DNA from: Lytechinus variegatus | Lineage: Eukaryota | NCBI RefSeq assembly: GCF_018143015.1 | Contig: NC_054741.1 | Coordinates: 72,164,687-72,228,686, forward strand | Direction: 5' to 3' | DNA length: 64,000 nucleotides | In this document: piece after piece, positions 569 to 42,789 of the stretch | How positions within the stretch are numbered: position 1 is the first letter of the stretch | How the letters are laid out: every line of letters begins with the position of its first letter | The notes under the pieces: generated by a model | The model's input: the letters and a program-made list of their open reading frames with translations, nothing else | Told to the model about the DNA's origin: nothing | Databases searched by the model: none | Translations under genes and position numbers: made by a program

Positions 569-1755
569 ATTGCATCTTCCTGATCACGTTTTTTGAAATG
601 CAACTATCCTTTATCAACACTGATACTTATGAATACAGGAAATTTTGATCCTTGTTTGACTCTCTTTTTTCACCATTAGTTTGTGATCGTATCAGTTGGG
701 CACCATTACTGTTCGGTTGATATATGCCATGAATTCTTTATATGTTTTGTCATGTTTCTTTTTACTGGAGATATTCTTGTGAGTACCATATTTCCTGTGT
801 GTGCTGTTGTTTCTTGGAGAATTTTTAACCCGTTTGTATTGTGATAATAGGCCTATTTTTCTACCAAGTCTTCAGAAACAAGAGAAAGTATTTGCTGGCT
901 GCTTCTTATATCTGACTTATTCTTGGCAGAATTTATGAGCAAATTGCTGTGCTCAATTGTTTTATCTTTATGAAGTTCTTTCAAAGCTACTGTCCTGAGA
1001 ACATGATCTTTTCTGCTCAGTCAAACAAAAATACCCCAGCGTTCCAGAACCCCTTGTGCATCTGACTGTGGCAAGTCAGATTTAGAATGTTTAGATGTAA
1101 CAGTCGTTGGTATGTTTTGAATAACCACCATTGTCTGATGCTTTTCTTTTTACTATGTTACAATATTTTATTCATTTAGTTATTTACCACTCGTGGGATG
1201 GAACATCCTATCAGCAAATGCTGTTTGTTGTAGGGGTCCATACACAAAAATATAAAGTACAATGTATGCAATCAAACATGTTAATGACAAAAGCACAATG
1301 TCATATGACATAAATCATGAAATATATACAATATTGGTGAAAGAAACAAAGTACTGAATGTGTGATGTAGTATGATAATCCAAATCACAAGAGGGATCCC
1401 AGGAAAGGGTATTCCGTGTATGAATGTAGCTGTGGCATATTTATCTGTAGCTAATGATCGTATCCGTTAGGCACCACTCCTAAAAACAGCCTGTGATTTG
1501 TATTTCGTTACACCAGGTGTCTCACGATGGCCTTTCTTACAGATATTGTAAGACAGAAATTGAAAAAAAAATGGATAACAAAGCTGGGTATATTTGTATA
1601 CTATTCTTGTTTTATATTATTCAAGATTGTTTTGATCTAAATGTATTTGGATGGAATGCATGGTTTTTGTGTGATTTATTTTCCCAATACATAATTGTTC
1701 AAAATGGGATTGTATTTTTGTTAACTTGTATCCAGGGGTTCCCATATCATTGGTG

Positions 1756-1838
1756 CCTCTATCCAGACATATCTCTTGGAGAAGACTAGGCTTGTTCACC
1801 AGGCTGATGGAGAAAGCAACTTTCACATATTCTACCAG
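1756..1838 (+). CDS. Unconventional myosin, motor-domain exon (..[34 protein letters not shown])
   Basis: Acceptor cag at 1753-1755 and donor gtaggg at 1839. The exon encodes the myosin motor motif YLLEK..R......E.N.HIFYQ. Confidence 0.8.
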
Positions 1839-2421
1839 GTAGGGAGTGTGCAGCAATCTCTATTGACTGTTTTGGACGGCTATGCTTCTGTAGGCTATGT
1901 TTCTGTGTGATGGATTCATATTTTCATATTCATGTTTTGTGCTCCTCACACACACATTGCAAAATAGCAACTCTTGTCTATCAATTGTTATAATGCAATA
2001 ACCAATACAGGAAAGAAATCATATTTGTGTGGGTTTCAATATCAATATACTGTATCAGAAACTTTAAACTTAATAAACTTAAAATAATTTTCAAACTTTT
2101 TAAAATTCATGGTCCAACAGGAGAAATATCTTGTGTGTAAGACAGGTTGATTATATGACACTTCTGAGAATAGTCTGGGCTTTGAAATCTATTATTTTGT
2201 GGTTGTACTTTTTTTTTTTTGGGGGGGGGTAGAGTTGTTTGGTTGGGTTACATGTAATGGAATTCTGTATGTTTTCCTTTGCATTAATCTTTCAAAATGC
2301 TTTGCAAAGTCTTTATTTCATTCTTTTTTTTAATATGGAGCAAAATTGATAGATTTGATTGTCTCATCAAGGGGCTTCATTAAGAAATAAATTCACTTTT
2401 CATTTTGTCCTTCCCTTCAAG

Positions 2422-2619
2422 ATCGTGAATGAGGCAACAGAAGAACAGAGGGCAGAATGGGGTCTGACCACACCCACTGGTGATGATGTCATGTTTGCTT
2501 ACCTCCCATTGGATGATGGTATCCAGTCAAGAGCCAATGAGAATCAAGTATTTAGCAGAACCCAGCACGCTATGAAGAATGTAGGCATTACTCATATGCA
2601 CCAAGAAAATATATTTCAG
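2422..2619 (+). CDS. Myosin motor exon (IVNEATEEQRAEWGL...HQENIFQ)
   Basis: In frame with the previous exon at phase 0, between acceptor ttcaag| and donor |gtgaga. It continues into the conserved ILHLGN block of the next exon. Confidence 0.8.
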
Positions 2620-2767
2620 GTGAGAAAACTGAGAGATAGACAGGGAGAAAAAGGGGAAACATCCAAAATATTGAACTTTTTTTATATTCTTTTAAATTGG
2701 AGGAATGGAGTTACTGTGAAAAAGTAAACATGTATAAAGATCAAGAAAAATATTGATTTCAGGTAAA

Positions 2768-2885
2768 ATGAATAAATAAATGAAAGAAAGAAAGAAAGAA
2801 AGGAAGAAAGGAAGGAAGGAAGGAAGGAAGGAAGGAAGGAAGGAAGGAAGGAAGAAAGAAAGAAAGAAAGAGAAAGAAAGAAAGA
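2768..2885. repeat. Microsatellite (GAAA/GGAA)n
   Basis: Long aaag/gaag purine tract. It accounts for spurious ORFs 2682-2903 (-) and 2780-3007 (+). Confidence 0.95.
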
Positions 2886-3000
2886 CAACACATATTGAAA
2901 CAAAATATCAGATATTTACCTTATGTTTTCATTATCTTTTGATTGTTGTATCAGTTGTACTTTTCATGAACTGCAGAGTTAATATGTTTTACTTTGACAG

Positions 3001-3082
3001 GTGTTGAGTGGTATCCTTCATCTTGGCAATCTAGAGTTTACATGTGATGAGGAATTTGATCCTTGTGAATTAGATGAGGAAG
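3001..3082 (+). CDS. Myosin motor exon (VLSGILHLGNLEFTCDEEFDPCELDEE)
   Basis: Carries the conserved myosin ILHLGN.EF motif, between acceptor tttgacag| and donor |gtaaat. Confidence 0.85.
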
Positions 3083-3469
3083 GTAAATGATATTCATATC
3101 CTAGTTTTATCTCCTAAAGCTCATCTACAGATTATACTTAATTTTCAATAAAATGAATTGTATTTGAATAACATCTAATATTGAAATCGTACAAATTTAA
3201 GCATTGGGACTCCTTAACCTTTCATCATCTACTTATTCTGTATGAAAATTTGAATTTTACATTTGTGGATATTTAGTTCCCTCTCGGTAATGTTTTAATT
3301 TGTCTATTTTTCAAAACTTTTAAGAGGCTTTTATGAATGAAATTAAGGGATTGTTGTTATTTTTAAACTTTAGTGACATGATTCAATGGCTGTGTGTGTA
3401 TTTGTTTCTATACAAGGACATTATGAGACAGTGTAAGGTTCTAAAGCTATCATTAAAGGAAACCAAAAC

Positions 3470-3980
3470 CCAAGAAGAGAGGCAATCTTATTGGAAAGAA
3501 GAAAATGAGAGGAACAATTTAAAAAAAGTTTCATCAAAATCGGTTATGAAATAAGCAAGTTATGGACGATTAAAAAGTCTTGTTGTACTTACTATGTGGA
3601 TCCTCAAATTGGCAAACGTGCTTCAAAATGGCTGATTTTGTGGACAACTCTCCATTTGTTTTGTACATATATTTTCAGATTTTCCCCTTTATTTTACATA
3701 TTTCATATTATCTCCTCCTGACCTTGGCATATATGGTGTGGATTATATTTTCCCATGACATATGCTGTGCTCAGAAGGAGGCAAGATGCAATTTGAAAGA
3801 TAATGAGGAAAATCTGAAAATTTGTGTACAAAACAAATGGAGAGTTGTCCACAAAATCAGCCATTTTGTAGCACGTTTGCCAATTTGAGGATGCCCATAG
3901 AAAGTACAACAAGAGTTTTCAAACTCCCATAACTTGCCTTTTTCATAACCGATTTTGATGAAACTTTTTTTTAAATTGTT
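3470..3980. mobile_element. Palindromic MITE-like element in a myosin intron
   Basis: 3480-3700 (..gtttcatcaaaatcggttatgaaataagcaagttatgg...ttggcaaacgtgcttcaaaatggctgattttgtggacaactctccatttg) is the reverse complement of 3830-3965. ORFs 3580-3888 (+) and 3703-3912 (-) encode near-identical peptides. Confidence 0.75.
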
Positions 3981-4431
3981 CCTCTCATTTTACTCTTTTA
4001 AATAAGATTACTTCTCTTCTTGGGTTTTGGTTTCCTTTAATTGAGCAAAGTATAACAATAAAGAATTGGTATGTAGTGTACATATATATATTGGAAAAGC
4101 ACGATGGCTAGTCAGGTATACTGTTACATTGTAAACAATAAGCTTTGTTTAAACAGTATGCAGTTTAAAACAAACGATGTTAAGAGTCCAGGACATTTGA
4201 TGAATTCATATATACAGACATTATTGTTTCATTTGAGATAAGGGGGGGGGGGGGGGATGAAATATGGTTTGTCATAAATATTTATTTTGAAGTCATGATT
4301 AGGAGCTTATGACTGCTTAAAAAGGTTGTAAATTGTTGATCATATTGCTTGCCAGTTACCTTCATTTGTGGTACCTATATGTAGAATTAGGAAAGATTAA
4401 TTTTTAAAAACAAGGCTTTTTATCTTTTCAG

Positions 4432-4618
4432 TGTGCCAGGAATCCCTAGAGCATGCATGTAGACTGCTAGGTCTGGACCCTACCAGTCTGACCACATCTC
4501 TCATCTACCGACGCATCACTGCATCACACAGCAAGCGCCAAAGTGTGTTCATGAAACCATGCTCAGTGGAGGAAGCTGGTGTGAGGAGGGACTGCATGTC
4601 AAAGGTTATCTATGCAAG
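4432..4618 (+). CDS. Myosin motor exon (CQESLEHACRLLGLDPTSL...RDCMSKVIYAR)
   Basis: Matches ORF 4431-4622, between acceptor ttttcag| and donor |gtgagt. The RD.L.K.IY..LF.W motif continues into the next exon. Confidence 0.85.
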
Positions 4619-4805
4619 GTGAGTTGATTTGGTAGGAACGAAGGAGCAGGGAAATATAGAGTTATGACATACAGAGGGCAAAAGACTTGGGTACCCTTTG
4701 CATAGAAATTTGAACTTTGGTTGGGTAGCAAGAAATATTCAATACTTCCCTTTGATTCATGATAAAGTTGATGGTGTTGATGACAATTCTGCTGCTGCAT
4801 TAGTG

Positions 4806-4824
4806 ACATGTGAAAGTGATGAAG

Positions 4825-4855
<31 letters not shown>

Positions 4856-4874
4856 GATGATGGTGATGGTGATG

Positions 4875-4906
<32 letters not shown>

Positions 4907-4915
4907 GATGATGAA
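4806..4915. repeat. Microsatellite (GATGAT/GGTGAT)n, intronic
   Basis: Trinucleotide repeat. It explains the poly-Met/Val ORF 4698-4973. Confidence 0.95.
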
Positions 4916-5008
4916 GTTGATGAAGTTTTTTATAATAACAATGAAATTTGAGTGCCCCGAAAAACATATTTGATTATCTAATATTTCCCTTGCAACTTAC
5001 ATTTACAG

Positions 5009-5198
5009 ACTGTTTGATTGGTTGGTTGCCTTCTTGAACAAGCATACATCAGCCAATCAGTGGCATGCTTTCATAGGTCTCCTGGACATCTATGGGTTCG
5101 AGAGCTTTGCTAGCAACAGTCTTGAGCAGCTCTGTATCAACTATGCCAATGAGAAACTGCAGCAGCACTTTGTGATGCACTTCTTGAGAGCTCAACAG
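5009..5198 (+). CDS. Myosin motor exon ([11 protein letters not shown]...[28 protein letters not shown]...AQQ)
   Basis: Contains the highly conserved myosin switch-II region LDIYGFE and the motif [14 protein letters not shown]. It lies between acceptor tttacag| and donor |gtacag. Confidence 0.92.
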
Positions 5199-5499
5199 GT
5201 ACAGTGGAGGGGGTCCTACAAATTTGCAACTGGGTTGAATGAAAGATTCTCATTAAAAATAGCACCTGGATCACATATATTTGTGCCTTGTACATATTGG
5301 AAAACCTAGCTCTCAAGAAATTTTATGAAATAAGATTTTTTTGAATTGCTATGTGATCTGTTCAGACATAAAGACCCATATTCTTGAAAGTGGTTTCGAT
5401 CGCCTTTTATAAGTTTCATTTGTGTCAAATTATTATTTATATTAACATTGATATCTTTGACACAACCGTAATCGTCTATAATTTTTTTTCTTATTGTAG

Positions 5500-5610
5500 G
5501 AAGAATATGAGAAAGAAGGAATTTCTTGGAATTTCTGTACTTTCAGTGATAACCAACCTTGTCTTCAGACCATTGAGGGCAAGCTCAGTGTGTTCTCTCT
5601 CATGAATGAA
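5500..5610 (+). CDS. Myosin motor exon (EEYEKEGISWNFCTFSDNQPCLQTIEGKLSVFSLMNE)
   Basis: 111 nt at phase 0, between acceptor tgtag| and donor |gtgagt. It carries the conserved myosin EEY..EGI.W motif. Confidence 0.9.
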
Positions 5611-6147
5611 GTGAGTGTATCTAATACATATTTATAAAGGTGGATGCAGCGATATGATCAAGAAACATAATGTTTTGTCTGATTTTCGCCGATGCATGTA
5701 TATTTGCTCTTGGGTAGTCTAATGCAAAGATTTGAATAGCTTCTGACATTTTTTGGGGTGTAAATCTAAAATCTGTCATCAACTTGTTGTCACTGTTTCT
5801 GTAAGATATAATCGCATCATCCAATGTTGAACATATATTGAGAAAAGTACCCATAATTAGAGACATAAGTACAAATATGTTCAGCGCAATATACACATGA
5901 CAAACAACAATGAAGAATACAATAAAAAGTTTCATAAACTTGGCTTGATATATTATATCAGGGTAGTACTGCAATACAGTGTTTCAATATTCCTATTCTT
6001 ATAGTAAAGGATACATGAACATCCATTTTCTTCCGCTTTTCATCTGTCCAACTCCTGTTTAAAGAAACGTTCATGTTACATGCATTGTCTGATAAACATG
6101 ATTTAATGTTTGATAAGTCATAATTTGATGTTTTGTTTCCCGAATAG

Positions 6148-6324
6148 GAATGCAGACTGAACCGCCAATCTGACACGACATCATTTGAGGAGAAACTGTT
6201 AGCAGCTGTAGATAGTCCCTTCTTGACCAAAGCTCCTATGAATCATCCACAATCAGCGTTTACTATCAAACATTATGCTGGATTGGTCACCTATGATATA
6301 CATGGCTTGATAGAAAAGACTAAG
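6148..6324 (+). CDS. Myosin motor exon (ECRLNRQSDTTSFEEKLL...FTIKHYAGLVTYDIHGLIEKTK)
   Basis: Carries the conserved F.I.HYAG.V.Y...GFLEKN-type motif. It is 177 nt and lies between acceptor aatag| and donor |gtaagg. Confidence 0.9.
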
Positions 6325-6812
6325 GTAAGGTACATTTGTTTCCTTAGGATCCATTCATCCAGAATTTATCCTCTGTTAATGATTGTCCCTCTTGTGAACA
6401 GGCATTCATTGATAAAACATCCATAACTGTAATCTTCTTTAAAGCTTGAATTAACAAACGTGGATATCCTTGGGTCCATTGACTAATTTCAATACCAGGG
6501 TTGCAAAATTTATATTTCACAAAGATGGGTTTAGTCAGCCCATGGTTTACATAAGTGATATGACCTTGGATTGTAATAATTATGTCAAATGATACACTTT
6601 AACGAATGGGTTAACTTAACCCAGCTTTGTGAATACAAAACTTGAATACCATTTTGTTAGAGTAAAACCATCGTGATTTTTTGCTATTAAATGGGAGTCA
6701 ACTATCTAATGAATTAGGCTCTTGAACTGCAATGTGTAGCACATGGATGAGTTTAATCGTCAGCTGTGGAAATAAGTTTCAAATAAGAATTTTTGTTTTC
6801 TTTTCATTCTAG

Positions 6813-6905
6813 GATCCGATTCCAATGGAATTGATTGAAGTTTTGATGGAAAGCACAAATCAGTTTGTGACCAAGATCATTCAGCCTGAACAAGAGAGGT
6901 TGCAG
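6813..6905 (+). CDS. Myosin motor exon (DPIPMELIEVLMESTNQFVTKIIQPEQERLQ)
   Basis: 93 nt at phase 0, between acceptor ttctag| and donor |gtaaaa. Confidence 0.8.
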
Positions 6906-7257
6906 GTAAAAAATAATACAATGATAAGATTGATTTAAAAGAACTGAATTTGCTCTCTTTCGCTATATATTCCCATGGTTTTCAGTGATCTCAAACTCAT
7001 GACTGAGACTTCCTTTCTTGCCTATGTAAAATTTACCCAAAAGTCCCTTCTGCAAACAAAGATTGATTTAACCAATTATATAGCAACTATTTACTCTGTC
7101 TTTATGACATGTTATTTCAAAAGATAATATGCAATATGCCAGTTATTTTCTTTCCCCAGAAATGAGATTTCAACATTCAGTAAAATTGGCAGGATTCATT
7201 TTTTTTCCTCTTTAAAATTAGTTTCACGATTTTGTTGCTCTTTTTTTTATTGAACAG

Positions 7258-7317
7258 GAGCTCCAGAGTAAGGGATCCAAATCAAAACTCAGCAAGACTG
7301 TTGTTTCAAGATTCAAG
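7258..7317 (+). CDS. Myosin exon (ELQSKGSKSKLSKTVVSRFK)
   Basis: 60 nt at phase 0, between acceptor gaacag| and donor |gtaata. It links to the conserved ..SL..LM.TL block of the next exon. Confidence 0.7.
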
Positions 7318-7735
7318 GTAATATTGAGTGTAAATATTCTGTTTTACTACAACGACATGGCTTTTGATTTCAATCAGGTTTACAAGGAGTAGCATCTAGT
7401 TACATTTCAATGATATTCTGTTTGCTTTATTAATTTAATAAAATACAGAGATATACATGTGTAATAAATAGTGATAGATGCACGTTGACTGTAGATCACA
7501 TGAAAAGCCAATTTTTACAAGAATGTAGCAACTTTTCTAGACATATATTGAAGAAACTTTGTTGTTGGCATATACATTTAACTCACTCCCGAAATAGATA
7601 GTATTTGATGATAAAGAAAGAAGGAAAAGCAAATCAGTGATCCTTATAAACATCATGGACTGACCATAAGAATTATTGCCTGCTCATTGTTTTGATTTAT
7701 AATTATTTAATTGTGTGCACTTTTCTTAAATTCAG

Positions 7736-7914
7736 GAGTCTTTGGGGAGTCTAATGACCACATTGACCTCTACCACTCCTCACTACATCAGATGCATAAA
7801 ACCCAATTTTCAGTGCCAGCCAGACTTGTTTGACAGTCGTTTTGTTGCCTCTCAGCTGAGAGCTTGTGGTGTCTTGGAAACTGTGGCCATCAGTGCTGCA
7901 GGGTTTCCTTCAAA
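7736..7914 (+). CDS. Myosin motor/converter exon ([24 protein letters not shown]...[20 protein letters not shown])
   Basis: Carries the conserved myosin motifs PHY(I/V)RCIKPN and GVLE..RIS.AGFP. It lies between acceptor ttcag| and donor |gtaagt, at phase 2. Confidence 0.92.
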
Positions 7915-8680
7915 GTAAGTTGGATCTACATCAAAGCCCCGTTTCACAAAAGTTGTTATCCCTGGAAAGTTACGAGATACTGTTGTAATACACCGAATTC
8001 CTTCCATTTGATAGAATGAAAGCAAAGTTCTAAGAATGTTTCCAAAAGCAAGATTTATGTGAATTAGATCCAGAGGCTCTTTTCATAAATATTCTATTTA
8101 ACACACAACTCGTAGCAGAATTTATCCCAAGTCCAAAATGCTTAACTCGATTAATAGAAAGCAAGGATATGTTTGAAATTTCAATGTTGCGATTAACTTT
8201 AACTAGCTCAAGGGCCCCATACCTCAAAGCTTAGCGAATAATTGTAAGGATGATTTTCACAATCAATTGCATTGATCAAGGAACTTGGAAGCAGTCGGGT
8301 GTTTTGTGTAATGGGGGTCAGATGTGTCTGTTATATAGCCTACAAGGGACAGTCTATCTTGAATTTAATGCGAATAGTATAAGAATAATAATGGACCCAA
8401 ATTCTGCCTTGTAAAATTTTCATGCAAATCAGTCTTGAAATATACAGTCTTGCAATGCAGCTGTTGCAATGTCTAGGTTTGGGTTCTGATAAGCTGAATT
8501 TTGAGCATATTCCAAACCTACCCTATGACTTCCATGCAGTATACTTATTCTGCGGGAGGAGAGGGGGACCTCGGGTCATAGGTATGTCTACAGGAGTTTG
8601 AATAAAGCTGAATGTAAAAATAAGGAAACTAAGTTATTTTGAAAGTAGTAATTAACTAAAATGAATTGTCAATTTTTCAG

Positions 8681-8876
8681 GTTATCACATGCAGATTTCT
8701 GTGAGAGATACAGTATCCTCCTTCCCAAGGAGGAGAGGGATGACCTAGGGTCAATACGAGATAGTTGTAGACTCATCTACAAGAGTTTGTTTGGTGATGA
8801 TGATAAGGAGAATCAATCAGATAGTTCATCCACTCAGCAGCTTGGCAAGACAAAGATCTTTCTTAGAGAAGGCCAG
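8681..8876 (+). CDS. Myosin converter/lever exon (KLSHADFCERYSILLP...GKTKIFLREGQ)
   Basis: Matches ORF 8661-8885 and carries the conserved GKTK(I/V)F.R.GQ motif. It lies between acceptor ttttcag| and donor |gtatgt. Confidence 0.9.
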
Positions 8877-9684: not shown

Positions 9685-9814
9685 TTGGAATACCTTGAGA
9701 GTCAACGTATGAAGAAGCTTTCCCAGTGTGCTGCCATAATCCAGAGAGCCTGGAGAGTTTACAGAGCTCTTGTCATAGGGGAGAGGGAATGGGCTGCCTC
9801 AGTTATACAAGCTG
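9685..9814 (+). CDS. Myosin neck exon carrying IQ motifs 1-2 (LEYLESQRMKKLSQCAAIIQRAWRVYRA...AASVIQAG)
   Basis: Contains the IQ consensus patterns IQRAWRVYR and VIQAGYRGWR. It lies between acceptor catcag| and donor |gtagat. Confidence 0.88.
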
Positions 9815-10099
9815 GTAGATTTGAATTTTTAAAGGGTTATATGAACCATACATTCTTATCACAATGGTTATTTTACTGAATAGCAAAACAATACTTTTCC
9901 TCATGAAAACATTTTAGAGTTTCCACACAGATATAATTATAGGCTATCTCACAACATATATTTTAAGACCAATTATTTATAATCCGCTGTAAATGATACA
10001 CCACACAGGTTTTTTGTCAATTTGCTCCCCCTTTACATAAAGTGGCTCATATTACGGAGATCATTTGGTGTACCATGATTTCATCCTTATTATGAAAGT

Positions 10100-10520
10100 G
10101 GGTTGGTTAGTCTGACGAGGGTTGAGGTTAGTCTGTTAGTTGAGAGGGTTTGTATCCACTTTGTCTAGCAGCAGTTGGTCCAATTGCATTATTTCCTAAA
10201 AATGCATGGCTTAAACCAATGGGTCTACTTACAAATTGGTCTAACATATAATCGGTCTATTGTTATTCTCACTTGGTCTATTTTCCAATTTGTATAAAAA
10301 CCAAGTTCTCTCAATTGTCTCTTTGTCTAATTCTCAAATGAAAATTTGATATATTATCAGTTTGTCACAAGCGATAGAGGCAGTGGTGTTTCGCCAAGTA
10401 GACATTAGATGAAGTGAGAATTACCAAATGGTTTAATAGTAGACAAACTGGTTGTAGACGAACTAGAATAGCCTATATGGGATGAGATCAAACGGGGTAA
10501 TAGATAAGTACGATTAGACC
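10100..10520. mobile_element. Palindromic MITE of the ggtctaa/ttagacc family, in a myosin intron
   Basis: The left half is rich in ttggtcta/ggtctaa and the right half in tagacc/ttagac in inverted orientation. It belongs to the same family as 58620-59530. Confidence 0.65.
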
Positions 10521-10573
10521 GTCAGAGCTCATTCCAGTACATTCTTCTTGTAATCCTTGATTCCTACTTTCAG

Positions 10574-10761
10574 GGTATCGAGGTTGGAGGGTACGTAATG
10601 CCATCAAGATCATGGATCATGCAGCGAGAGTGATACAACATGCCATGTTGGACTACCTGTTCAGAAAGAGGCAGGAGAGACTTGATGCCTCTATCTATGA
10701 AGATGATTATGAAGAAGAGCAGGATGTGGAGGACATGGGAGAAGTCGAGGATGATGAGAAG
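10574..10761 (+). CDS. Myosin neck/tail exon (YRGWRVRNAIKIMDHAARVIQHAMLDYLFRKRQERL...acidic stretch...EK)
   Basis: Carries the third IQ motif (ARVIQHA..DYLFRKR) followed by the acidic run YEDDYEEEQDVEDMGEVEDDEK. It lies between acceptor tttcag| and donor |gtatga. Confidence 0.85.
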
Positions 10762-11611
10762 GTATGATATGTATCAATGACAAGTGACAGATGAGCTACT
10801 GAAATGATGCAATTATTGGATTGACCTAGCGTATTGTAGCATATTTTCATTCTAAACAGTTTAATGAAACGGGACTGAGGATCATATCTGTGGCCACTTT
10901 GCAGACACAGATGCAATCAAATTCCCCCCCCAAAAAAAAAAACAATCAAATTTTGATAATCAGAGACAAACATTCAAGGCTTTCATATTATTTTTTAGTT
11001 GCATTTCTGCGATGTGCCCACAAAAAAAATTGGAGAAAGAAAGAAAGCAAGTGATTGAAATAATCTGAAAAAGTTTTAATTTAGCAAAATATTTATGGAC
11101 ATGAAAGTGATACTAATCCCCCTCAGAATTACACTCCATTTCAATAGTGGCATAATCAACTTTTTTTGATGTACACCTTCAACACTTTTCTGAAAACTGT
11201 ACGTTATGGTAAACAAAAATAAATGTTAGCATATTTTTGTTGTAATATTTACCTCTACCCTTTCTCCTGAAAGAAAGCAAATTATCATATGAATGGTTTG
11301 CAAGTCCTGCTGCTTTTGTCTTTTACTCATTGTGTACTCATTGTGTCCTTCCTTCACAAATCTATGTCCTTCCTGCAAATTGATTAAAAGTGGAATGTGT
11401 ATTTGTTAAATAAAGAAATTGATACTGTTTTATACTTTTGTTCATTAATGTTGATTTAAAGTGTTATATTGAGAGTATTTTTGTAACACAAAAGCCTCCA
11501 GCCAATGAGAAGTATTCAACACCGTGAAAAATTTGTGAACTCATTCAGGCAAATTTTAGTACGTTTTGGTCTCTCTAATAAATGTTCAATTTTTGACATT
11601 TGGTATTCCAG

Positions 11612-11998
11612 GTGGAAAGCCCTTCCATACCCACAGCCAAGCTTCCAAGGAAGTCCGTCCACTTTGCATCAGAACTCACCAGCATCCGAGAGATCTGCTC
11701 CCCTAGTCCTCTCCCTACCCCAACCCTCACACCATCATCCCTGGGCTGCACTGCAAGGAAGATTGTCTTCACTGAGAACTCACCAGACTTCCAACGCCTC
11801 TCACCTGTCTCACGTCATCATGGCAATGAGGGAGTGGCCAAGACAGACAAGGAAGAAGAGGAGAGAGAGATGGATAAGAAAGAGGAGGAAGGAGTTGTTG
11901 CTACGATGACCAACATCTTAAAGAAACCTGCAGTTGATATTGCCTTGGTGGGACTTGTCACAACCCTGTTGATAACTGGGCCTCTTAGATGGACTTGA
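11612..11998 (+). CDS. Myosin terminal exon: Ser/Pro-rich and charged tail ending in a hydrophobic segment (..KKPAVDIALVGLVTTLLITGPLRWT*), stop TGA at 11996-11998
   Basis: Matches ORF 11600-11998 after acceptor ttccag| at 11609-11611, in frame with the previous exon. The C-terminal 18-residue hydrophobic stretch is flanked by Lys and Arg. Confidence 0.85.
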   Translation: MESPSIPTAKLPRKSVHFASELTSIREICSPSPLPTPTLTPSSLGCTARKIVFTENSPDFQRLSPVSRHHGNEGVAKTDKEEEEREMDKKEEEGVVATMTNILKKPAVDIALVGLVTTLLITGPLRWT

Positions 11999-12260
11999 TT
12001 CTCAAATATTTTGTTTCCCAAAGAAATACTCCTAAAAATTTTATTCTGTTGATCAACTTTGATACCTGAAAGAAAAGTTTATAATTTGTATGTTTTTAAT
12101 ATTGAGCTCAGAGTTACTAATTTTATTAAAAGATCAGTACTACATTTCCAGATAGAAGTGCCTTCACAAGTTCATGATGATATCCAATTTGGTTGATTTT
12201 CATAACTACTGTTTTCTGAGTTTAGGCCATAAGAAGCTATTCAAATTCTTAACCATATAC

Positions 12261-12266
12261 AATAAA
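12261..12266 (+). promoter_or_regulatory. Candidate polyadenylation signal AATAAA for the myosin gene
   Basis: AATAAA lies about 265 nt after the stop codon. A second AATAAA lies near 12371. Confidence 0.3.
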
Positions 12267-15200
12267 TGTCCATACCTGTTTGTATATTCAGATGATTTGG
12301 AAGTTGTTTTGGAATTCGTTAGTGATTTCTGTAAGAGAACAAATCCACCCAAACAGTAGATTTATATGAATAAATAGAGAAAAATGATATGGGCATATGA
12401 TGAATATGTCTTCAAAGTGTAGGTTGCCTTATTTATGGAATAAGTGAAATTTACAATTCAAACTGTCATTTAACATCTGATTTCATTGACTTAGCATTAT
12501 TGTTCTTTCTTTTTTTTCAAACCAACTTTTTCTTGTGGTTGGCCTTTACTCGAATCAGTTTGATGTTGGATGGCTTTACTGTTCTACAGGGGGTGGGGGT
12601 CAGGTGCCTTTTAAATAACTATGTTATTCTTTAATATTTATTATTGAAATGAACTAAATGTATTTTTCCAGTTGGTTGATTTTCATCACTACTGTTTTCT
12701 GACTTTAGGCCATTCATAGCTATTCAAATTCTTTGTTTGGACTAGCAGTGATTTCTAGGGGGAATGTGAGAAAGAAAAGATGCAATGTGCTTAGTGTCAA
12801 AGTGGCCATTCTTAATTAAATGACACCCTGATTTTCTTAATTTATTCAATGTTTGTGTACTGTTTTGATAAGGCAACTTAACAATAGTTTGTACAACGTC
12901 ATATAGCTTGAATCCTGGCCAGCGTCTAACACAATTGCTATCCCACATTGAGCTGATCCTGAATGAGGGTTAGCTAGCAATAGACAGCACGCGGCACAGA
13001 CTTTGTAAAGTATTTGCGTAAAAGGGCTACCGGGTAATTAAAATGATCAATTTACACCAAATAACAGCCAATTCCCCATTGACTTATGTACAAGTACAAC
13101 TTGCCATCGGATCTGTCGGAACCAAGGTCAGAACTATCTTGACAGATTGCATGGTCTAAAATATAGATCAGTAGATAATAATCATATTCATTTTATTTCA
13201 TTGTATTTTACCTTCTTGAATTTGAGGAAAGAAGATGATTCAAGATTATCAAATGATATTCCAAAGTCTTGCAATTTAAGAGAATAGAAATGGTGAATTT
13301 TATTCTTGGGGGAAAAAATGGAATTTCTTATATTTTTTATTAAGAATTTTAGATATAATTCAAGAAAAATTATGATACATAGTTTTCACTGGCATTAACC
13401 ATTGATATTTAATTACTTTTAAACTGTGTTTTTAACCTCAATGACTCAATGACAATATCCCCAGTTACAAGGAAAGATCATGCCTCTTAATTTTCCAAGA
13501 TTTTTAGCATCTTATAAATACATTGAAGTTTTTATGCGCCCTTTAGTTTTCAATCCTTAGTGGTGTTTGAACAAAAGCTTGTAATATATGCATAGCAGTG
13601 ATCATTTGCAATTGTGCAAAAGGCATAAGTAATGGTGCTTTAAAAATTCAATGTATGAAATGTAAATACAATTGAAATATATATTAAAAAATGTCTTTAA
13701 AACTAATTCAGATTATATATTGTAGTCAGAATATTTCTGATTTCCACCAGCATGCTGGAATGAACTGAATTATGTGAATAAAGTAAATTGTTTGAACAAA
13801 TTTCTTTTGTTGTGCTATGTGGGTATTTTTTGCACCAGTTATGTTGTTCCATTTTAAAGAATTAAAGCATTCAAGCATCAAGATTTTACAGGTATATTAC
13901 ATGAACTTTTAATTCATTTTTTCATTTCCAAACAACACGACATATACAGACAACACATAACATTTTCTTAAAATCACAATTATTGCATATATCAGTGTCA
14001 TATTGAGTAACTCTTCTGTTCTAATGAAAATTCCTACAGTTGTACATAAAATATAATGATTATTATGAATCAAATCTATAAATATACGATCTAATAATTT
14101 CAATCAATATCAGATTTTACTATTTGAGGACAAACTACAAAATAAAAATGGGGACCATGAGTTCATGCCAGAAAATAAACTTGATACAACATCTATCTAA
14201 ATGAATACTACTGTTTTCATGTTAAACATGATGTCTTTTTCTTCTTTAAGATTACACACTTAAAAATGGAACAACATTCATATATATTAAGAATTCCTTT
14301 TTTTCATTATTAGTGAGGTTGGTGGAAAAACAGTGATCATATGTTTCTTTAGCCATTAAAGTGGATGTCTTAATAGTCAGCGAATGGGGAATGCGATTTA
14401 TCTTAAATGAAAAACGGTACAGATGAAAAGCAGAATTATCCGGAAATGCAACTTTTAACAAGTACATGGATATATATTGAAAATGCTTCCAAGAGAATTG
14501 ATTTTGACTAAAGCCTGGCCCAAATCCATTATATTAAAAAGAGTCAAAACACCCCAACTCATTCATACAATATCTCATGTTCTACAATGTACCCATATGT
14601 TTACAATACATCCAGTTTAACTTCTTTAATAATAGTTTCGCTTTGCCTATAGTATCATCCTGGCCATAGTGTACAGTCCTGAAATGCATCATGAATTAGT
14701 CCTACCGAAGGCACAGACTATGGTACTTGAATACTGATCATAAAGTGTTATAGTCTTGTATTTTCTTGGAATTCTCGTCTAATACCACATATTTAAGTAA
14801 TGAAAGAAAGGCGAGTAAACCCCACATAAATGTATTTTGCTACACAATATAGGACAACATGAACATAATTTTTTAACCCGTTTCCTTACATCAACCTTAC
14901 ATGAGGCAAATAATCATACATTTAAAAAAATAGTTTACCCTTGTAGATGAATGCAATAGAATGTTTATATTCTTTGTTTTAATAGGTAAATTTGATTGTA
15001 TTTCAGAATGTCTTCTTTTAGAAGAGCAATTCAATGCAAACATCATTCACCCACCTATTCATATAGGTGGCACTGTTCTGAATATTAAAAAAATGAAATG
15101 AACACAAATATAACAATCATTTTAAGCTTTATTTTTCTTTAGAACAAATAAACATAAAATTAACCATAAAAAAAGATGAAATGAGGTAACAAAATGTACA

Positions 15201-15925: not shown

Positions 15926-16087
15926 TTAGACAGCTACAGCAAATCCCAGACGGTCGTTTGCACGGTCAAACTTGGTGTAGTATTTGCGAAGGAAGGGATC
16001 ACCCAGGATCCAGAGGGGTCCAGCTGGGGGAGGAACATCCAGGCCGATGAACCCAGATACACACAGCTCAACAGTGCCTTGATTCAC
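15926..16087 (-). CDS. ctsd: Cathepsin D-like aspartic protease, exon 9 (last): [53 protein letters not shown]
   Basis: Matches ORF 15926-16165 (-). Acceptor ccccag| is at 16088-16090 and stop TAA at 15926-15928. The peptide matches the conserved C-terminus of cathepsin D ([31 protein letters not shown]). Confidence 0.9.
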
Positions 16088-16841
16088 CTGGGGTAGAATA
16101 GAAAAGGTGATTGATTCATCAACTTTAGGGGTCTTGTCACACAGATCCAGGGTCCCGTACCACAAAGGTTAGCAATTAATCGTACACTTGATTTTCATAT
16201 ATTAATTGTACAGTATAGTCAATGCAATCGATCATAAAAAAATGTTCCACAATGACTGCTAAGCTTTGTGATATAAGCCCTAGGTCACTGTCTGAAACCG
16301 TTTCAAATAACTTACTAGTACATGGCAATTGCATTGGAACTGTTTTTGGTTGCCATTTTGATTACCAAGACAGTGCAATGTTGGTGTGGACATTCCATTT
16401 GGAACGGTAAACACGGCAATCAATTTCAATTTCAGAGATCAATTTCAACAGTTTTTAGTGCAGTGCTGTACCAAAATGGATCCTGATTTGTGCTTGGTGT
16501 GCAAGAGTCTTAAAACTTAAAGGCCCAAATTCACAAAATAACTTTAATGCCAAGGGGGGAAAAAGAAGAACATAGAAAACACAATTTTCATACCAAATAA
16601 TTTGAATGAAGAAAAATGCAGGGAATTTCATGTTAGCACAATATCAAAGCTAATTCCTATGAACAAAACCAAGCATCAGAAATAAATCTTCTGAAAATCT
16701 GCTTATCTACATTCTGCAGTACAGAGTTTACATTTTCAAAGATTTCAACTATTATATGTGGTTTATCATATATTTTATACAAGCCAACAATGAAGAATAT
16801 TAAAGTGAGGGCTGAGGACGTTAGAATCTATAGACACATAC

Positions 16842-16940
16842 CTTGAGGACATAGTCTTCTCCGTTCAGAGTGTATGTCTTGCCAGCAAGGACAATATTCA
16901 CAACAGGAAGAGTAGGTATCAAGTTACAGTTTATCATATA
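16842..16940 (-). CDS. ctsd: Cathepsin D-like exon 8 (YMINCNLIPTLPVVNIVLAGKTYTLNGEDYVLK)
   Basis: 99 nt at phase 0, between acceptor ttttcacag| and donor |gtatgt. Homologous to human CTSD [33 protein letters not shown]. Confidence 0.85.
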
Positions 16941-17709
16941 CTGTGAAAAATACAAAACAAATATACAAAACAATTATTAATGCTTAATGTTCTTCAACCA
17001 CACTTCACTTTTTTCAAACCACTTTTACGCTAATCATAGTTTCGGTCAGACCTGATAATTAGCTAGTCTCAGTTTCAAGCTCATAGCCGGTGACTAGGAT
17101 ACAATGATTTTTTTTCTAAATCCAGTTGAATACCAAAGCAATCGAGACCTATGCTATTGAAAGTGATCATGCAAATATGACTCAGCATGGATAGGATAAT
17201 GTATCAAGTACAAAATAAATGAGGTATTGTTGATCACGAGTACTGACTGAATATTCATGGGCGAACCACATAGTTGGCAAACATCACTTTCAACTAATGT
17301 AGGGTATACTTGTGGAGTTTACAGCACAGACCTTATGGTTAAAAATTCTGGACAGTTTGATACATACATGTAAGGCACATCCACATTATAAATGGGTATA
17401 ATGTAAGAGGAAATATGAGAGAATAAACATTAAAACTCGAAAGTTTAGCTGGAATTCTTTTCTTTAAAGAAACAATGAGTCACAGGGAGCTACTGTGAAT
17501 CAGTGTAACTCTCTAGAATTTTAATCAGGATGTCAGGGATCAGAACCCAGATATCCTTAGGCAAGACATTAATCTAACATTTGCCACTATCAATCCAGAA
17601 GAAGTAAATCAGTTCTTGGTGGGAGGCAAGCCTCGGAAACTTGTGCACCTAATCAGAGTAGCCGTGCTAGAGCTTGGGTAATAACATGCAGCGCTTGCAA
17701 ACATTGTAT

Positions 17710-18300
17710 TAGAGGGATGGTCCGGGCTGAAAGTATGTATAGCTTAATAAATAGAGTAGAATTCACTGAGCAAAATGCCGAAAATTTCATTAAAATTGGA
17801 TAACAAATAACAAAGTTATTGAATTTTACAGTTTAGCAATATTTTGTGAAAACAGTCGTCATGAATATTTATTAGGTGGGCTGATGATATCACATCTCCA
17901 CTTGTTCTTTTGTATTTTATTCTATGAAATTAGGTTTATTCAAATTTTGTCCCCAAAGAATGACAAAAATTGGATTGACAACTGACTTAGTGCATTAGAT
18001 ATTTATTGCTGCAACTTATTTCATTATAAGGGAGACATACTATTCACACAAGTATGAAATAATGACAAAAAGTACGATTTTATGTAATAACATAAGAAAA
18101 TGGAAAGTGGAGTTGTGACATCATCAGCCCACCTAATGAATATTAATGACAACTGTTTTCACAAAATATTGCTAAACTTTAAACTTCAATACCTTTATTA
18201 TTTGTTATCTGATTTTGATGAAATTTTCAGAATTTTGCTCAGTGAATTCTACTCTATGTATTAAGATATAAATATTTTCAGCCCGGACCATCCCTTTAAA
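17710..18300. mobile_element. Palindromic MITE in a cathepsin D intron (arms of about 225 bp)
   Basis: 17710-17935 (..gggatggtccgggctgaaagtatgtatagcttaataaatagagtagaattcactgagcaaaatg..) is the reverse complement of 18070-18300 (..cattttgctcagtgaattctactctat..gcccggaccatccc..). Confidence 0.8.
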
Positions 18301-18435
18301 TGCTTGATTGATGTTACATAGTATCATCATCATCATCGTTATAATCTTAGGTGTTACTGTGCATGAAAACCCTTCTCCAATTACATGCAACCTATCCATT
18401 TTTCTATTATTGGATTCATGTCAGGGATACCTCAC

Positions 18436-18577
18436 CTCGCCAGATGTAAATGGGGCAGCACCAATCTGTTCCTGAAGTTTGGCAATCTCTGCAGAGGGAC
18501 CAGCAATGAGGGACGTACCAGTGTCAGCAATGGCTGCGCAATTGGTGCAATAGGTTCCATTTCCGCCAACATTAAGA
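18436..18577 (-). CDS. ctsd: Cathepsin D-like exon 7 (SLNVGGNGTYCTNCAAIADTGTSLIAGPSAEIAKLQEQIGAAPFTSGE), second catalytic DTG
   Basis: Carries the DTGTS active-site motif, between acceptor ttaaacag| and donor |gtgagg. Confidence 0.9.
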
Positions 18578-19411
18578 CTGTTTAATAAACAAAGATCAGA
18601 TAGGTTGCAAAATATTTTAAAGACCTTTTTTATGAAAAAATGCTCTTAATAAATATATTCTATTGTCTATATATAAAAAATACATGAGACTCAATTCAAA
18701 TTAATTTCAATTCAATCGAATTCATATTATCAAACCATTGTAAAATCAATAGTATGTACACACATGTATAACAATCATTGCAAATATAGTTTAAATGATT
18801 AGGGTGCCCCTAAAAGCAGAAGCTTGACCACAAACAGATCTCTTAGTACATCAAATAACAATTTGTTGATTGGGTGCTTTCTAAAGTTATCACCACTAGA
18901 GATGAAGAGCATTGTAAGTAATATCAGTCACCAGCAGAGACATAAAATACTCACATTATCATCACACACATGTTATCATCATACACATGTTTATCAGACA
19001 TATATTATATTGTGTGACGAATTAAACAAGGCAATCAATAACATGCCACGGTATTAACATTGCATGAATTTCCTGTAAACCCAATAAACATTCAATAAAT
19101 CATACATTTTGCAATAAGATGCTTGTTGACAGGAAAAGAAATCTACACAGAGGATCTGATTTTGCAAGGGAAAGTTGTCCCAAAATTTGTGATAATTTGA
19201 TTACCAAATTGCCAATCAGAAATTTACATATATCATGTCGTCTTAGTGATCACTTTTCAAACAGCCATAACTCTCTCATTGCTTGCCACATTTATTTCAA
19301 ACCTTTACCATTCTGGGTTTTTTATGGTAAACATTTTTCTCCTCTAATGCCATTTAGTGACCAAGGTTCGATTTCCCTTGAAGAGTGAATATTATTTTTT
19401 GATCATCGTAC

Positions 19412-19534
19412 CTGTCCATCTTGATCTGCCAGTAACCTTTGCGTGTGACATTTACATAACTGAAGTCTCCAGTATAGTGATCAGGATCTGCTCCTCCAAA
19501 GACTATCTCACCGCCAACCTTAGCTGACGCATCT
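19412..19534 (-). CDS. ctsd: Cathepsin D-like exon 6 ([40 protein letters not shown])
   Basis: Matches the ORF 19354-19731 (-) frame. The NVTRK.YWQ motif, carrying the conserved N-glycosylation site of cathepsin D, is present. It lies between acceptor gtcgtcag| and donor |gtacga. Confidence 0.9.
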
Positions 19535-19851
19535 CTGACGACAGAGGAATAGAAGAGAGTTAGAGAGAGAAAGACACAAACAGGGGAGACGAAGACAATC
19601 CTTTGTTTTGAGCTGACTTTCGATAACCACACATGCTTGAAAGTTGATGAATCAGTCCTTGCTATCATTCTTATGATGCGATCAGAACCAGATTTCAACT
19701 GAACATTAATCTTATACAGGATGCAAATCACAACCCAAATGATTGGATCGCAAATTAATGGTCAAGCAAGATCATTATTCCGATGAAAAGCAGCAATATC
19801 TTCGCTTTGGTTTGTAAAATAAAATGCAATTTCAAATTAAGCTTATACATA

Positions 19852-20052
19852 CTTTGCAAGATAGACTGCAAATACAGCATCCTGAACCAGGCCCTGCTTT
19901 ACAATGTTGTCAAACACAGGAAGTTTACTGATCCTGGTAATGGTTGGGTAACCCAGTCCTAGAATTCCATCAAACTTGGCCGCTATAAAGGTTAAACCTG
20001 GTTCAGCAGTTGCCTCTCCAAAACTCTGGCTCTTTGCCTTCAGACCACCCAG
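19852..20052 (-). CDS. ctsd: Cathepsin D-like exon 5 ([66 protein letters not shown])
   Basis: Matches ORF 19843-20085 (-). Homologous to human CTSD [50 protein letters not shown]. Coordinates are good to within 1 bp. Confidence 0.9.
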
Positions 20053-21334
20053 CTGTAAGATGTAACACAAAGCATCAACATACATGATGCAGTTGTAAGT
20101 ATATTATAAACATTAGGTACAGTTTTGCTCAATGTTGGTAAACCCTACCTCAAAATACACTATAGACAACAACACTACAATGTTCTGTGAGCCCAGAGAA
20201 ACAAACTGTGTTGAATGTAATATTTTATCACCCGACTTCACAATGGAATATCTAAAACACAGCAGAATGTGAACATTTTAAATAAATTTTCTGGTGGAAT
20301 TCACTGACTTTTGAGCAACACTGCATATCGTATTTTTTGGAAAAGTCATCTCCATTCATTTTAATGCTAAATACATTAAAGTTTGGATGATTAGAAAAAA
20401 AAGAAGCATAAGTTCAATATATAAGCATTCTAAAGTTACCCTGGCCAGGTTTTACAAGTAGGATCATGCAGAGACCATTGTTCTTAAAGAAAAACAAAAC
20501 CAAATACCACATTATATCATTTATAACATGATACAGGATAATTAAAGTAAATCCATCCACTTATACCCCAATGCAATTTCCTGATATAGAGAACCACCTC
20601 TTCAAATTGGGTTTCTTCAGGTTCAAAGTCTTAGGATGGAGGTCACCATGTTCGCGGGGTTAATTCAAAATTGTGACATCAGCGACAAACTAAATCTCTA
20701 AGCAGATATATAAATGTTTGCCTATTATAGATACTAATTTACAAATAATAAATCAAATACACACATAAAGCTCATAAATATATTATTCAGAATTCGTTTG
20801 ATGAAAAAATATTTTTAAAATTCAATTTTACACCCATACCTACAATTTCCAAATTGGCAAGTTATAGCTAATTAGCAAGTTTGAAAAAAGTAGACAATGG
20901 TGAAAAATTACTGATCATATCGTGTTTTGAAACTATAGTACAAAAAATATTTGGAACAATATTTTTATGTGTTTTATTTGTATATATGATTAATTATTGG
21001 TAAATAGAATCAATAACAGTAAATGTATAAGGGATGTAGCTCGTTGCTGACATCATAATTCCTGGAAATAAACTTGGTCTGTAGTTTTCTGATACTCAAT
21101 TATGCTCAAAGACCCTATCAAAGAAAAATTCAAACATTGCATGTCCTTTTTCAATTTCCTCAACTGTCATCCTCCCCTTTAACTTGTCCGCCTTCATTTC
21201 GCAATCTAGGCCTACTCATCTTCTTCTTCCTTTGTTAGCTCCACTTTCTTTTCCTCCCCTTCTTTTGCTTGACATCCTCTTCCACCCCCTTCTATCCCTC
21301 ATCATCAAGTTCATTACCATCAAATATAACTCAC

Positions 21335-21453
21335 CTGTATTGTATCCTCACTGACAAATCCAGAGCAAGCACCCGATCCATACTGTAGAGACCATTTTGT
21401 TCCATTAGCAACATAAGTTGATGATTTGGAGCTGTCATACTTGTGATGAAAGC
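21335..21453 (-). CDS. ctsd: Cathepsin D-like exon 4 ([40 protein letters not shown])
   Basis: Between acceptor acttacag| and donor |gtgagt. It carries the conserved NGT glycosylation site and the YGSGS-like flap motif. Homologous to human [37 protein letters not shown]. Confidence 0.88.
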
Positions 21454-21529
21454 CTGTAAGTTAGGAAAGAGTAAATCATATTGTTTTTTCTTTTAAAACC
21501 TGTATGTGTGCATGAATGCGCACATCAGT

Positions 21530-21991: not shown

Positions 21992-22180
<189 letters not shown>

Positions 22181-42394: not shown

Positions 42395-42425
42395 GCACAC
42401 ACACACACACACACACACACACCCC
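42395..42425. repeat. Microsatellite (CA)n
   Basis: acacacacacacacacacacacacac. Confidence 0.95.
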
Positions 42426-42778: not shown

Positions 42779-42789
42779 GTAAGATGAAA

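Follow-up and report, generated by a model that had tools for sequence, protein, structure and literature searches.

Can a myosin carry its own membrane anchor? The question is raised by a 64,000 nucleotide stretch of Lytechinus variegatus DNA (assembly GCF_018143015.1, contig NC_054741.1, positions 72,164,687 to 72,228,686, forward strand), referred to here as the window. A preliminary description, made from the sequence alone, noted a myosin gene with three IQ motifs and a short tail ending in a hydrophobic segment. It proposed that the product resembles MYO19, the mitochondria-associated class XIX myosin, and that its end has the topology of a tail-anchored membrane protein. Here, we ask what the gene encodes, whether the ending is real and what the ending might do. 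In our judgement, made with modest confidence, the terminal helix is a C-terminal membrane anchor peculiar to Ambulacraria, most likely of the tail-anchor type and in the outer mitochondrial membrane.

Results

The window encodes a class XIX myosin

The window is AT-rich (35% GC). Between 1.7 and 12 kb, 14 coding segments on the plus strand form a single 759-codon open frame ending with TGA (11996-11998). AG acceptors and GT donors border all 14 exons. After splicing, the product matches the last 759 amino acids of RefSeq protein XP_041456564.1 (P0286) with 100% identity; that protein is labelled "unconventional myosin-XIX-like [Lytechinus variegatus]". The N-terminal third of the motor, including the P-loop, is encoded upstream of the window. 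The exons are as follows.

1736-8876, plus strand: 11 upstream exons encoding the C-terminal two thirds of the myosin motor domain (AG/GT borders, single frame, Pfam Myosin_head match, RefSeq identity)
1736-1838, 2422-2619, 3001-3082, 4432-4618, 5009-5198 and 5500-5610, plus strand: upstream exons 1-6 in the window
6148-6324, 6813-6905, 7258-7317, 7736-7914 and 8681-8876, plus strand: upstream exons 7-11 in the window
9685-9814, plus strand: exon 12, encoding the end of the motor and converter, IQ1 AIIQRAWRVYRAL (9733-9771) and the first half of IQ2
10574-10761, plus strand: exon 13, encoding the second half of IQ2, IQ3 RVIQHAMLDYLFRKR (10627-10671) and an acidic run YEDDYEEEQDVEDMGEVEDDEK (10696-10761)
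11612-11998, plus strand: terminal exon of 128 codons plus TGA, encoding a disordered linker, the C-terminal helix and the stop

The last three exons, and the terminal TGA, are where the preliminary description had placed them. IQ2 is split by the intron at the exon 12/13 junction, and the motif spans 9799-10605. The gene is already annotated in RefSeq and is ordinary in itself. Its interest is confined to the tail.

We are close to certain that this gene is the L. variegatus orthologue of MYO19, an actin motor of the outer mitochondrial membrane, with its 3' two thirds inside the window. The best matches outside Ambulacraria are all MYO19 orthologues (about 500-518 bits, 41-46% identity), with vertebrate MYO19 scoring 500-518 bits. 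Among solved structures, the best class other than XIX is myosin Va (371 bits), followed by classes X (322), II (304), VIIa (302) and I (288). This order is consistent with the published view that classes XIX and V are sister classes (PMC3942036). A neighbour-joining tree separated 32 MYO19 sequences, including the window protein and all ambulacrarian proteins, from 22 next-best representatives with bootstrap support of 100/100. The tree is a distance analysis of 486 motor columns with limited class sampling, not a full phylogeny of classes I-XXXV. Six of the 22 outgroup proteins were sampled with Pfam, and four of these carry a DIL domain and are class V-like. Hence, the motor lies in the MYO19 clade and not in a long-tailed class, a placement that the preliminary description had named as a refutation. 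Within the clade, ambulacrarian monophyly has bootstrap support of 60/100.

A Trp directly after the P-loop has been described as unique to class XIX (human W140, in GESGAGKTW; PMC5599611). This residue is present in 12/12 ambulacrarian proteins, whereas the DIL-domain neighbours have V, M or E. For L. variegatus (P0286), it was read from the RefSeq protein, as the residue is upstream of the window. Pfam identifies Myosin_head in the window protein (profile positions 165-679, E=1.5e-141) and IQ at residues 561-578 of the partial protein, and nothing else. The three predicted IQ motifs do follow the converter, starting at residues 544, 566 and 589 of the partial protein, with a spacing of 22-23 residues. 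The tail, from IQ3 to the stop, is about 160 amino acids; that of human MYO19 is 146 amino acids (PMC8186483). Best matches, tree, class-specific Trp and a neck of three IQ motifs with a short tail all uphold the assignment.

The tail ends in a conserved hydrophobic helix

The protein ends KKPAVDIALVGLVTTLLITGPLRWT, followed directly by the stop codon. Features of the tail encoded by the terminal exon are listed below.

11612-11815, plus strand: Ser/Pro/Thr-rich disordered linker of 68 amino acids, 43% S/P/T, with several SP/TP sites (AlphaFold2 predicted local distance difference test, pLDDT, below 60)
11840-11893, plus strand: second acidic stretch KTDKEEEEREMDKKEEEG
11921-11926, plus strand: Lys-Lys basic flank on the N-terminal, proposed cytosolic, side of the helix
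11927-11977, plus strand: C-terminal hydrophobic helix PAVDIALVGLVTTLLIT, candidate tail-anchor transmembrane segment
11978-11998, plus strand: C-terminal flank GPLRWT plus TGA (11996-11998), with Gly-Pro, one basic and one aromatic residue

The acidic run YEDDYEEEQDVEDMGEVEDDEK lies within a 33-residue stretch that is 48% D/E and, as first described, the Ser/Pro/Thr-rich stretch follows it. Overall, the disordered linker is about 135 amino acids long. Two stretches of its Ser/Pro/Thr-rich part, KSVHFASELT and KIVFTENSPDF, are conserved among urchins. The basic residues immediately before the helix are KK in urchins and starfish, and K in brittle star and sea cucumber.

A hydrophobic segment of 18 residues had been reported near the C-terminus. 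The segment is present, but it includes a conserved Asp, and the uninterrupted apolar run is 13 residues (IALVGLVTTLLIT). The helix predicted by AlphaFold2, using the terminal exon and an alignment of 11 orthologues, is 17 residues long (PAVD...LIT). The exon is otherwise predicted to be disordered, except for a 7-residue helix (exon residues 96-102). The longer helix occupies exon residues 106-122, of which 111-120 have an average pLDDT of 86. It ends six residues before the stop.

The last 22 residues were aligned on an invariant Gly-Pro. The alignment is gap-free across 11 species, representing five echinoderm classes and one hemichordate (Saccoglossus). The consensus starts P-A-[VI]-[DE]-[IFLV]-A-[LMF], continues with six variable small or apolar residues, and ends L-[LV]-x-[TKRH]-G-P-[LVI]-[RKHNQ]-[WFLI]. 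Core positions vary only among G, A, V, I, L, M and T. The PAVD (P-A-[VI]-[DE]) and GP flanks are fixed or nearly so, with the G and P invariant in 11/11 species. Between classes, identity is 45% in the C-terminal segment versus 24% in the flanking linker, even after optimal gapping. Judged by these alignments, conservation of the hydrophobic C-terminus is more than chance.

In each of the seven ambulacrarian proteins scanned end to end, no 19-mer is more hydrophobic than the terminal segment. It is also the top 19-mer of the last 170 amino acids in 11/11 species, where it lies 0-7 residues from the C-terminus. Kyte-Doolittle means for the 19-mer are 1.49-2.06 in Ambulacraria, and 1.47 for the hydrophobic motif at residues 860-890 of human MYO19. 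In L. variegatus the value is 1.91, the protein maximum; the next-best windows (1.21 and 1.03) are inside the motor core. On the Eisenberg scale, over 21 residues, mean hydrophobicity is 0.45-0.64 and the hydrophobic moment is 0.02-0.18; for the helix at 11927-11977, the corresponding values are 0.53-0.67 and 0.04-0.11. A moment so near zero indicates a helix with no polar face, not an amphipathic surface helix. The N-terminus is polar (MAGVLRERFSNIPL...), and a simple hydropathy scan found no signal peptide or second transmembrane segment. A reading of the ending as a glycosylphosphatidylinositol signal or lipidation site was rejected, since there is no signal peptide and no CaaX-type ending.

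The C-terminal flank has a net charge of +1 or +2 in every species. With K or R before GP, the second residue beyond GP is H, Q or N (sea cucumber has K, giving +2); with T or H before GP, it is R. This compensatory placement in the alignment suggests selection for positive charge as such.

Among the myosin representatives P0121-P0265, only one other has a comparably hydrophobic C-terminus (P0192; L001 3001-6135, Logan ERR1598040). It is an intronless myosin of 1044 amino acids from a compact eukaryotic genome, with the hydrophobic end ...QQSLLFIGLVVAFDAFTIYMTHQY, and the neighbour-joining tree places it at the base of the DIL-domain (class V-like) group. A profile search with 48-50 C-terminal columns returned only an urchin fragment (P0284). 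As known orthologues were missed, the search is uninformative about other families sharing the ending. Probably, word matching in this search was swamped by the acidic, low-complexity part of the query.

The stop codon is conserved in position

An ending of this kind could arise from a faulty gene model, with either a missed downstream exon or the wrong terminal exon. All of the models compared, terminal exons included, are computational. However, the RefSeq model and both L. pictus isoforms all use the exon at 11612-11998, for which a different cDNA had been named as a refutation. The stop is also at the same position in S. purpuratus, two Diadema species, three starfish genera, a brittle star, a sea cucumber, two crinoids and Saccoglossus. 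Independent annotations of about 15 ambulacrarian species, besides the two L. pictus isoforms, share one ending. Short open reading frame fragments from Logan (P0284, urchin) and ENA (P0297, Asterias) end at the same residue. In the window, Patiria, Anneissia and Saccoglossus, one long terminal exon (128-166 codons) encodes linker, helix and stop together.

The next gene encodes an aspartyl protease. It is convergent, on the minus strand, and its last coding exon (15929-16168) is about 4 kb downstream, which leaves little room for missed MYO19 exons. We used tblastn with the tail module found in other animals, described below. No relic exon was detected between 11 and 16 kb, in the whole window, or in the 3' flanks of the Patiria, Anneissia and Saccoglossus loci. 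The single match, in Patiria, is weak (VRFDIRRSTRKHWHDVHAR against VRFHTRESVLKHAHRVHQR of Mya; 24.6 bits, and E=2e-4 from a very small search space). It runs on the opposite strand, and we put it down to chance. It is at about 20523-20579 of L003, minus strand, some 750 bp downstream of the Patiria MYO19 stop. A gene-model artefact is barely credible as an explanation of the C-terminus.

MYO19 tails differ between animal lineages

To survey tails, 1.8 billion cluster representatives were scanned with the L. pictus protein, which is 97% identical to that of L. variegatus, and name look-ups followed. Three arrangements were found. In Nematostella, Priapulus, bivalves, gastropods, Owenia, Lineus, Penaeus and amphioxus, the tail has a conserved terminal module and no hydrophobic segment. 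The module in these non-vertebrate, non-ambulacrarian tails is DG[IV][IL]T.RR.P..[PG][IV][KR]FHT...LK.[AG]H...[GS]L.D[CIV]L. Vertebrates have the same module (SIRALPQGSIKFH...ITGFNQILLE) and an internal hydrophobic segment (WPLGLVL...), 73-93 residues from the end. In Ambulacraria, the module is absent and the protein ends in the helix, so the hydrophobic segment is terminal, 0-7 residues from the end.

The functions of the vertebrate elements have been described. Human MYO19 residues 898-970 bind Miro, and residues 860-890 are reported to bind outer-membrane lipid (bioRxiv 10.1101/296376). F948 inserts, and E954 forms a salt bridge, in the ELF pocket of Miro, and F948A abolishes recruitment (PMC10897228). 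MYO19 is degraded when Miro binding is lost (PMC8186483). In the L. variegatus tail we found no internal WPLGLVL-type motif and no terminal module, the features of the vertebrate MyMOMA tail. These features (the 860-890 motif and F948...E954) describe the vertebrate tail and are not a definition of the class.

From the sequences compared, the terminal helix appears as an Ambulacraria-specific replacement of the receptor-binding end. On this sampling, the distribution suggests that hydrophobic membrane elements arose separately in vertebrates, internally, and in Ambulacraria, terminally.

Antedon mediterranea has many MYO19-like models (P0010, P0011, P0013, P0014, P0018 and cluster members). 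Their longest-contig entries share one length (38,962,182 bp), so a single chromosome-scale contig probably carries them, which points to either tandem duplication or fragmentation of the models. The hydrophobic C-terminus is retained wherever the tail is complete.

A possible origin of the ending

We compared the different kinds of C-terminus with each other. The only profile-profile match was between GPLRW and G[SP]I[KR]F (hhalign P=0.008, probability 4.8%, 6 columns). By eye, the sea cucumber end LLLKGPIKF resembles amphioxus QVLKGPIVLH, and the Saccoglossus end HGPLRF resembles SGPVRFH of Mya. Amphioxus has an intron exactly at K|GP. Hence, the terminal exon of Ambulacraria is equivalent to the penultimate one of amphioxus with about 5 codons of the last added. 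An origin by truncation just after the GP motif, with intron loss, would fit these comparisons, weakly and short of proof. Read-through of an amphioxus-type splice donor was considered as the source of GP and rejected; AAG|GTAAAA reads K-V-K-K-K-Y-stop, not G-P.

In amphioxus and Saccoglossus, a GST gene is immediately upstream of MYO19 on the opposite strand (L002 1-1792 and L005 1-1073). This is conserved microsynteny between the two, and the counterpart region in the urchin is outside the window.

Is the helix a membrane anchor?

The helix is six residues from the stop, and the best 19-mer is 0-7 residues from it across 11 species. Such a segment would leave the ribosome only after termination. 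Costello et al. found that a positive C-terminal flank with a moderately hydrophobic transmembrane domain is the pattern of mitochondrial tail anchors in mammalian and yeast proteins (PMC5450235). The ambulacrarian ending, with a flank of +1 or +2, moderate hydrophobicity and, in eleutherozoans, KK or K upstream, matches this mitochondrial type. The tail-anchor topology first proposed is strongly suggested by position, hydrophobicity, flank charges and deep conservation; spanning of a membrane by the helix would be a further step.

In the mechanism that we propose, the anchor would emerge from the ribosome only once translation has terminated, and would afterwards insert into the outer mitochondrial membrane. 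The motor in its entirety, together with the Lys-Lys flank, would remain in the cytosol, and GP-L-R-W would be at the intermembrane-space interface. The linker, with its proline-directed sites, would act as a flexible, possibly phospho-regulated tether, and the motor would be held permanently at the organelle. The helix would take the place of the ancestral metazoan module (DG-I-I-T-x-RR-x-P...P-[IV]-[KR]-F-H...[FL]-x-D-[IVC]-L), the last motif of which is the Miro ELF-pocket plug in human. With the Miro-binding module replaced, attachment would be constitutive and at least partly independent of Miro. Membrane insertion, bilayer spanning, a mitochondrial rather than endoplasmic reticulum (ER) or peroxisomal destination, and loss of Miro dependence are the steps that we infer. 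A fuller account is that ambulacrarian MYO19 is truly tail-anchored, that this arose in the echinoderm-hemichordate ancestor by truncation after GP-[IV]-[KR]-F and hydrophobisation of the preceding segment, and that coupling became permanent and Miro-independent. We hold this account tentatively, at slightly less than an even chance.

Several observations weigh against a spanning, Miro-independent anchor. The apolar core has only 12-13 uninterrupted residues. Helix position 4 is a conserved Asp/Glu, and position 17 is Lys/Arg in starfish, brittle star and sea cucumber. The additive Hessa-scale sum for the best 19-mer, a crude measure, is +3.7 to +6.8 kcal/mol, which is marginal for spanning a bilayer. 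PAVD and GP are strictly conserved, as if a protein, and not only lipid, had to recognise them. In addition, GGL[MIL]DL is conserved in three starfish genera (P0004, P0006 and P0007), about 70 residues before the helix in an otherwise divergent linker. It resembles L-x-D-[IL] motifs that fit the Miro ELF pocket (LADI, LADV), and may permit Miro binding in some classes. The same pattern finds no urchin counterpart, and a pattern scan for [FLYW]x[DE][ILVCF] found no match in urchin linkers. Miro motifs are degenerate and hard to recognise from sequence (PMC10897228); cryptic Miro binding by the urchin tail is conceivable even with the motif absent. PAVDIAL itself was considered as a degenerate ELF motif (compare FADI, LADI and amphioxus LADVLRF) and rejected. 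The pocket position is Ala/Thr, and F948A abolishes binding by human MYO19.

The short core between conserved charges, and the positive Hessa sums, would suit a monotopic wedge in the cytosolic leaflet of the outer mitochondrial membrane. This would be a non-spanning element like vertebrate 860-890, acquired independently. Vertebrate MYO19 binds outer-membrane lipids by a short basic-flanked hydrophobic stretch (PMC8186483; bioRxiv 10.1101/296376), the hydrophobicity of which is similar to or below that of the ambulacrarian helix. However, with a hydrophobic moment of 0.02-0.18, the helix cannot lie flat as an amphipathic in-plane helix. Its extreme C-terminal position, fixed length and conserved basic and aromatic C-terminal flank are needed by a spanning anchor and not by a wedge. 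We therefore regard the wedge as unlikely. Conservation of the flanks, greater than is usual for generic transmembrane segments, could also be explained by a hydrophobic peptide that docks to a receptor protein (Miro, for instance, or a metaxin/SAM component). Such a peptide would be a truncated form of the ancestral ...P-[IV]-[KR]-F-H... module. The GPLRW match, the paired resemblances of sea cucumber with amphioxus and Saccoglossus with Mya, and the amphioxus intron, with the exon correspondence that it implies, all favour this. Against it, the hhalign probability is just 4.8% over 6 columns, and the corresponding segment in other animals is basic, not hydrophobic (mean hydrophobicity -0.14 to 0.16). 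Furthermore, an all-apolar 12-17-mer with no polar face, on a disordered acidic linker, would be insoluble unless buried. A homologous origin is, in any case, compatible with a new membrane function. Docking of this kind seems to us decidedly improbable.

An anchor could also be directed to another organelle. The tail charge is only +1 to +2, and the grand average of hydropathy of the transmembrane domain is about 1.5-2.1. In mammals, low tail charge favours the ER and high tail charge favours peroxisomes, with overlapping boundaries (PMC5450235). However, MYO19 is mitochondrial in vertebrates where studied, and the motor and neck are orthologous here. Moderate hydrophobicity with a basic flank is the mitochondrial pattern, by rules derived from non-echinoderm cells. 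An ER or peroxisomal anchor is consequently a slim prospect. An outer-mitochondrial-membrane tail anchor is the interpretation that we carry forward.

Other features of the window

Features beyond the MYO19 coding sequence are as follows.

12125-12374, plus strand: candidate polyadenylation signals in the MYO19 3' untranslated region, ATTAAA at 12125 and AATAAA at 12261 and 12369 (motif match only)
15929-23308, minus strand: aspartyl protease gene of pepsin/cathepsin D type, with its 3' end facing that of MYO19
42325-48379, plus strand: multi-exon gene encoding at least four SRCR domains (Pfam SRCR, E 1e-14 to 1e-29)

Exon pieces of the protease at 15929-16168, 19357-19761 and 19846-20103 match Pfam Asp. 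The SRCR family is greatly expanded in sea urchins. Two simple repeats in MYO19 introns give long open frames that could deceive when only the sequence is at hand. The repeat at 2776-2939 is purine-rich, of GAAGGAAG type, and translates as KKERKEGRKEGRKEG...; that at 4823-4948 is GAT/GAC and translates as poly-Asp (DDDDDGDDDDDD...). Short tandem-repeat blocks at 43066-43396, 31358-31657 and 34317-34544 are open in several frames on both strands. Their translated units are PPGHPPPDIH..., EPYFVFGLTNLRNY... and RCSEGSLIRKRNKV..., and they are probably minisatellites.

Discussion

We found no published description of the ambulacrarian MYO19 tail in a full-text search that had most subscription journals outside it. 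In this mostly non-subscription literature, nothing linked myosin XIX with Strongylocentrotus, and the phrase "tail-anchored myosin" was unused. The papers that mention Myo19 together with "tail-anchored" were all about Miro or further proteins of the tail-anchored kind. If our interpretation is true, this would be, as far as we have found, the first natural single-pass, C-terminally anchored myosin described.

How far vertebrate MYO19 function rests on regulated recruitment by Miro is still debated. A deuterostome clade that has apparently swapped the Miro-binding end for a built-in anchor would be a natural experiment. Receptor-dependent, degradable recruitment would have become a permanent coupling of mitochondria to actin. 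The tails compared suggest that direct membrane binding by MYO19 evolved twice in deuterostomes, from a receptor-only ancestor. The prediction is that attachment is constitutive and Miro-independent in the eggs and embryos of sea urchins, which have long served in studies of actin, mitosis and the partitioning of organelles. The helix also offers a compact natural anchor sequence with which to probe what coupling of a myosin to the outer membrane needs.

Comparison with known systems

Human MYO19 (970 amino acids, MyMOMA tail) is a close known relative. Its motor is orthologous (clade 100/100, class-specific Trp), and it too has three IQ motifs and a tail of about 150 amino acids with no Pfam domain. 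Both tails have a basic-flanked hydrophobic element that contacts membrane, although in the urchin this contact is a prediction. In human, the element (860-890) is internal, is described as lipid binding, and is followed by the Miro-binding module with F948 and E954 (ITGF948NQILLE954). The urchin tail lacks both elements, and instead has a longer acidic, Ser/Pro/Thr-rich linker and a hydrophobic helix at its very end. Cnidarian, protostome and amphioxus MYO19 (Nematostella XP_048581925.1, Mya arenaria WAR03523.1 and Branchiostoma) shares the class, neck and overall length. The exon after IQ3 is positionally equivalent to that of Ambulacraria. The ambulacrarian proteins differ in stopping 3-4 residues past GP, without the terminal [FL]xD[IV]L.

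Fis1, Miro1/2 and members of the Bcl-2 family are tail-anchored proteins of the outer mitochondrial membrane. They have, like the urchin protein, a single helix near the C-terminus, moderate hydrophobicity, basic flanks and no signal peptide, and outside the helix they are cytosolic, as is predicted for the urchin protein. The urchin helix has no homology to these anchors, and differs in its shorter core, conserved Asp/Glu and unusually conserved flanks.

The "transmembrane myosins" of the literature are multi-pass chitin-synthase myosins (PMC3942036). In fungal class XVII myosin-chitin synthases, and in mollusc chitin synthases with a myosin head, a motor is likewise joined covalently to an integral membrane part. 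However, these large enzymes of an unrelated class cross the membrane several times, have no single-pass C-terminal anchor, and belong to the secretory pathway and plasma membrane. Another parallel is the engineered yeast Myo2-Fis1 chimera, in which a tail anchor of the outer membrane is fused directly to a class V-related motor and neck. This protein is found on mitochondria and transports them (PMC3153652), and so the architecture of motor plus tail anchor is workable. That construct is artificial, is built on a dimeric coiled-coil myosin V and borrows its anchor from Fis1. The urchin gene is natural and conserved, and its anchor sequence is its own.

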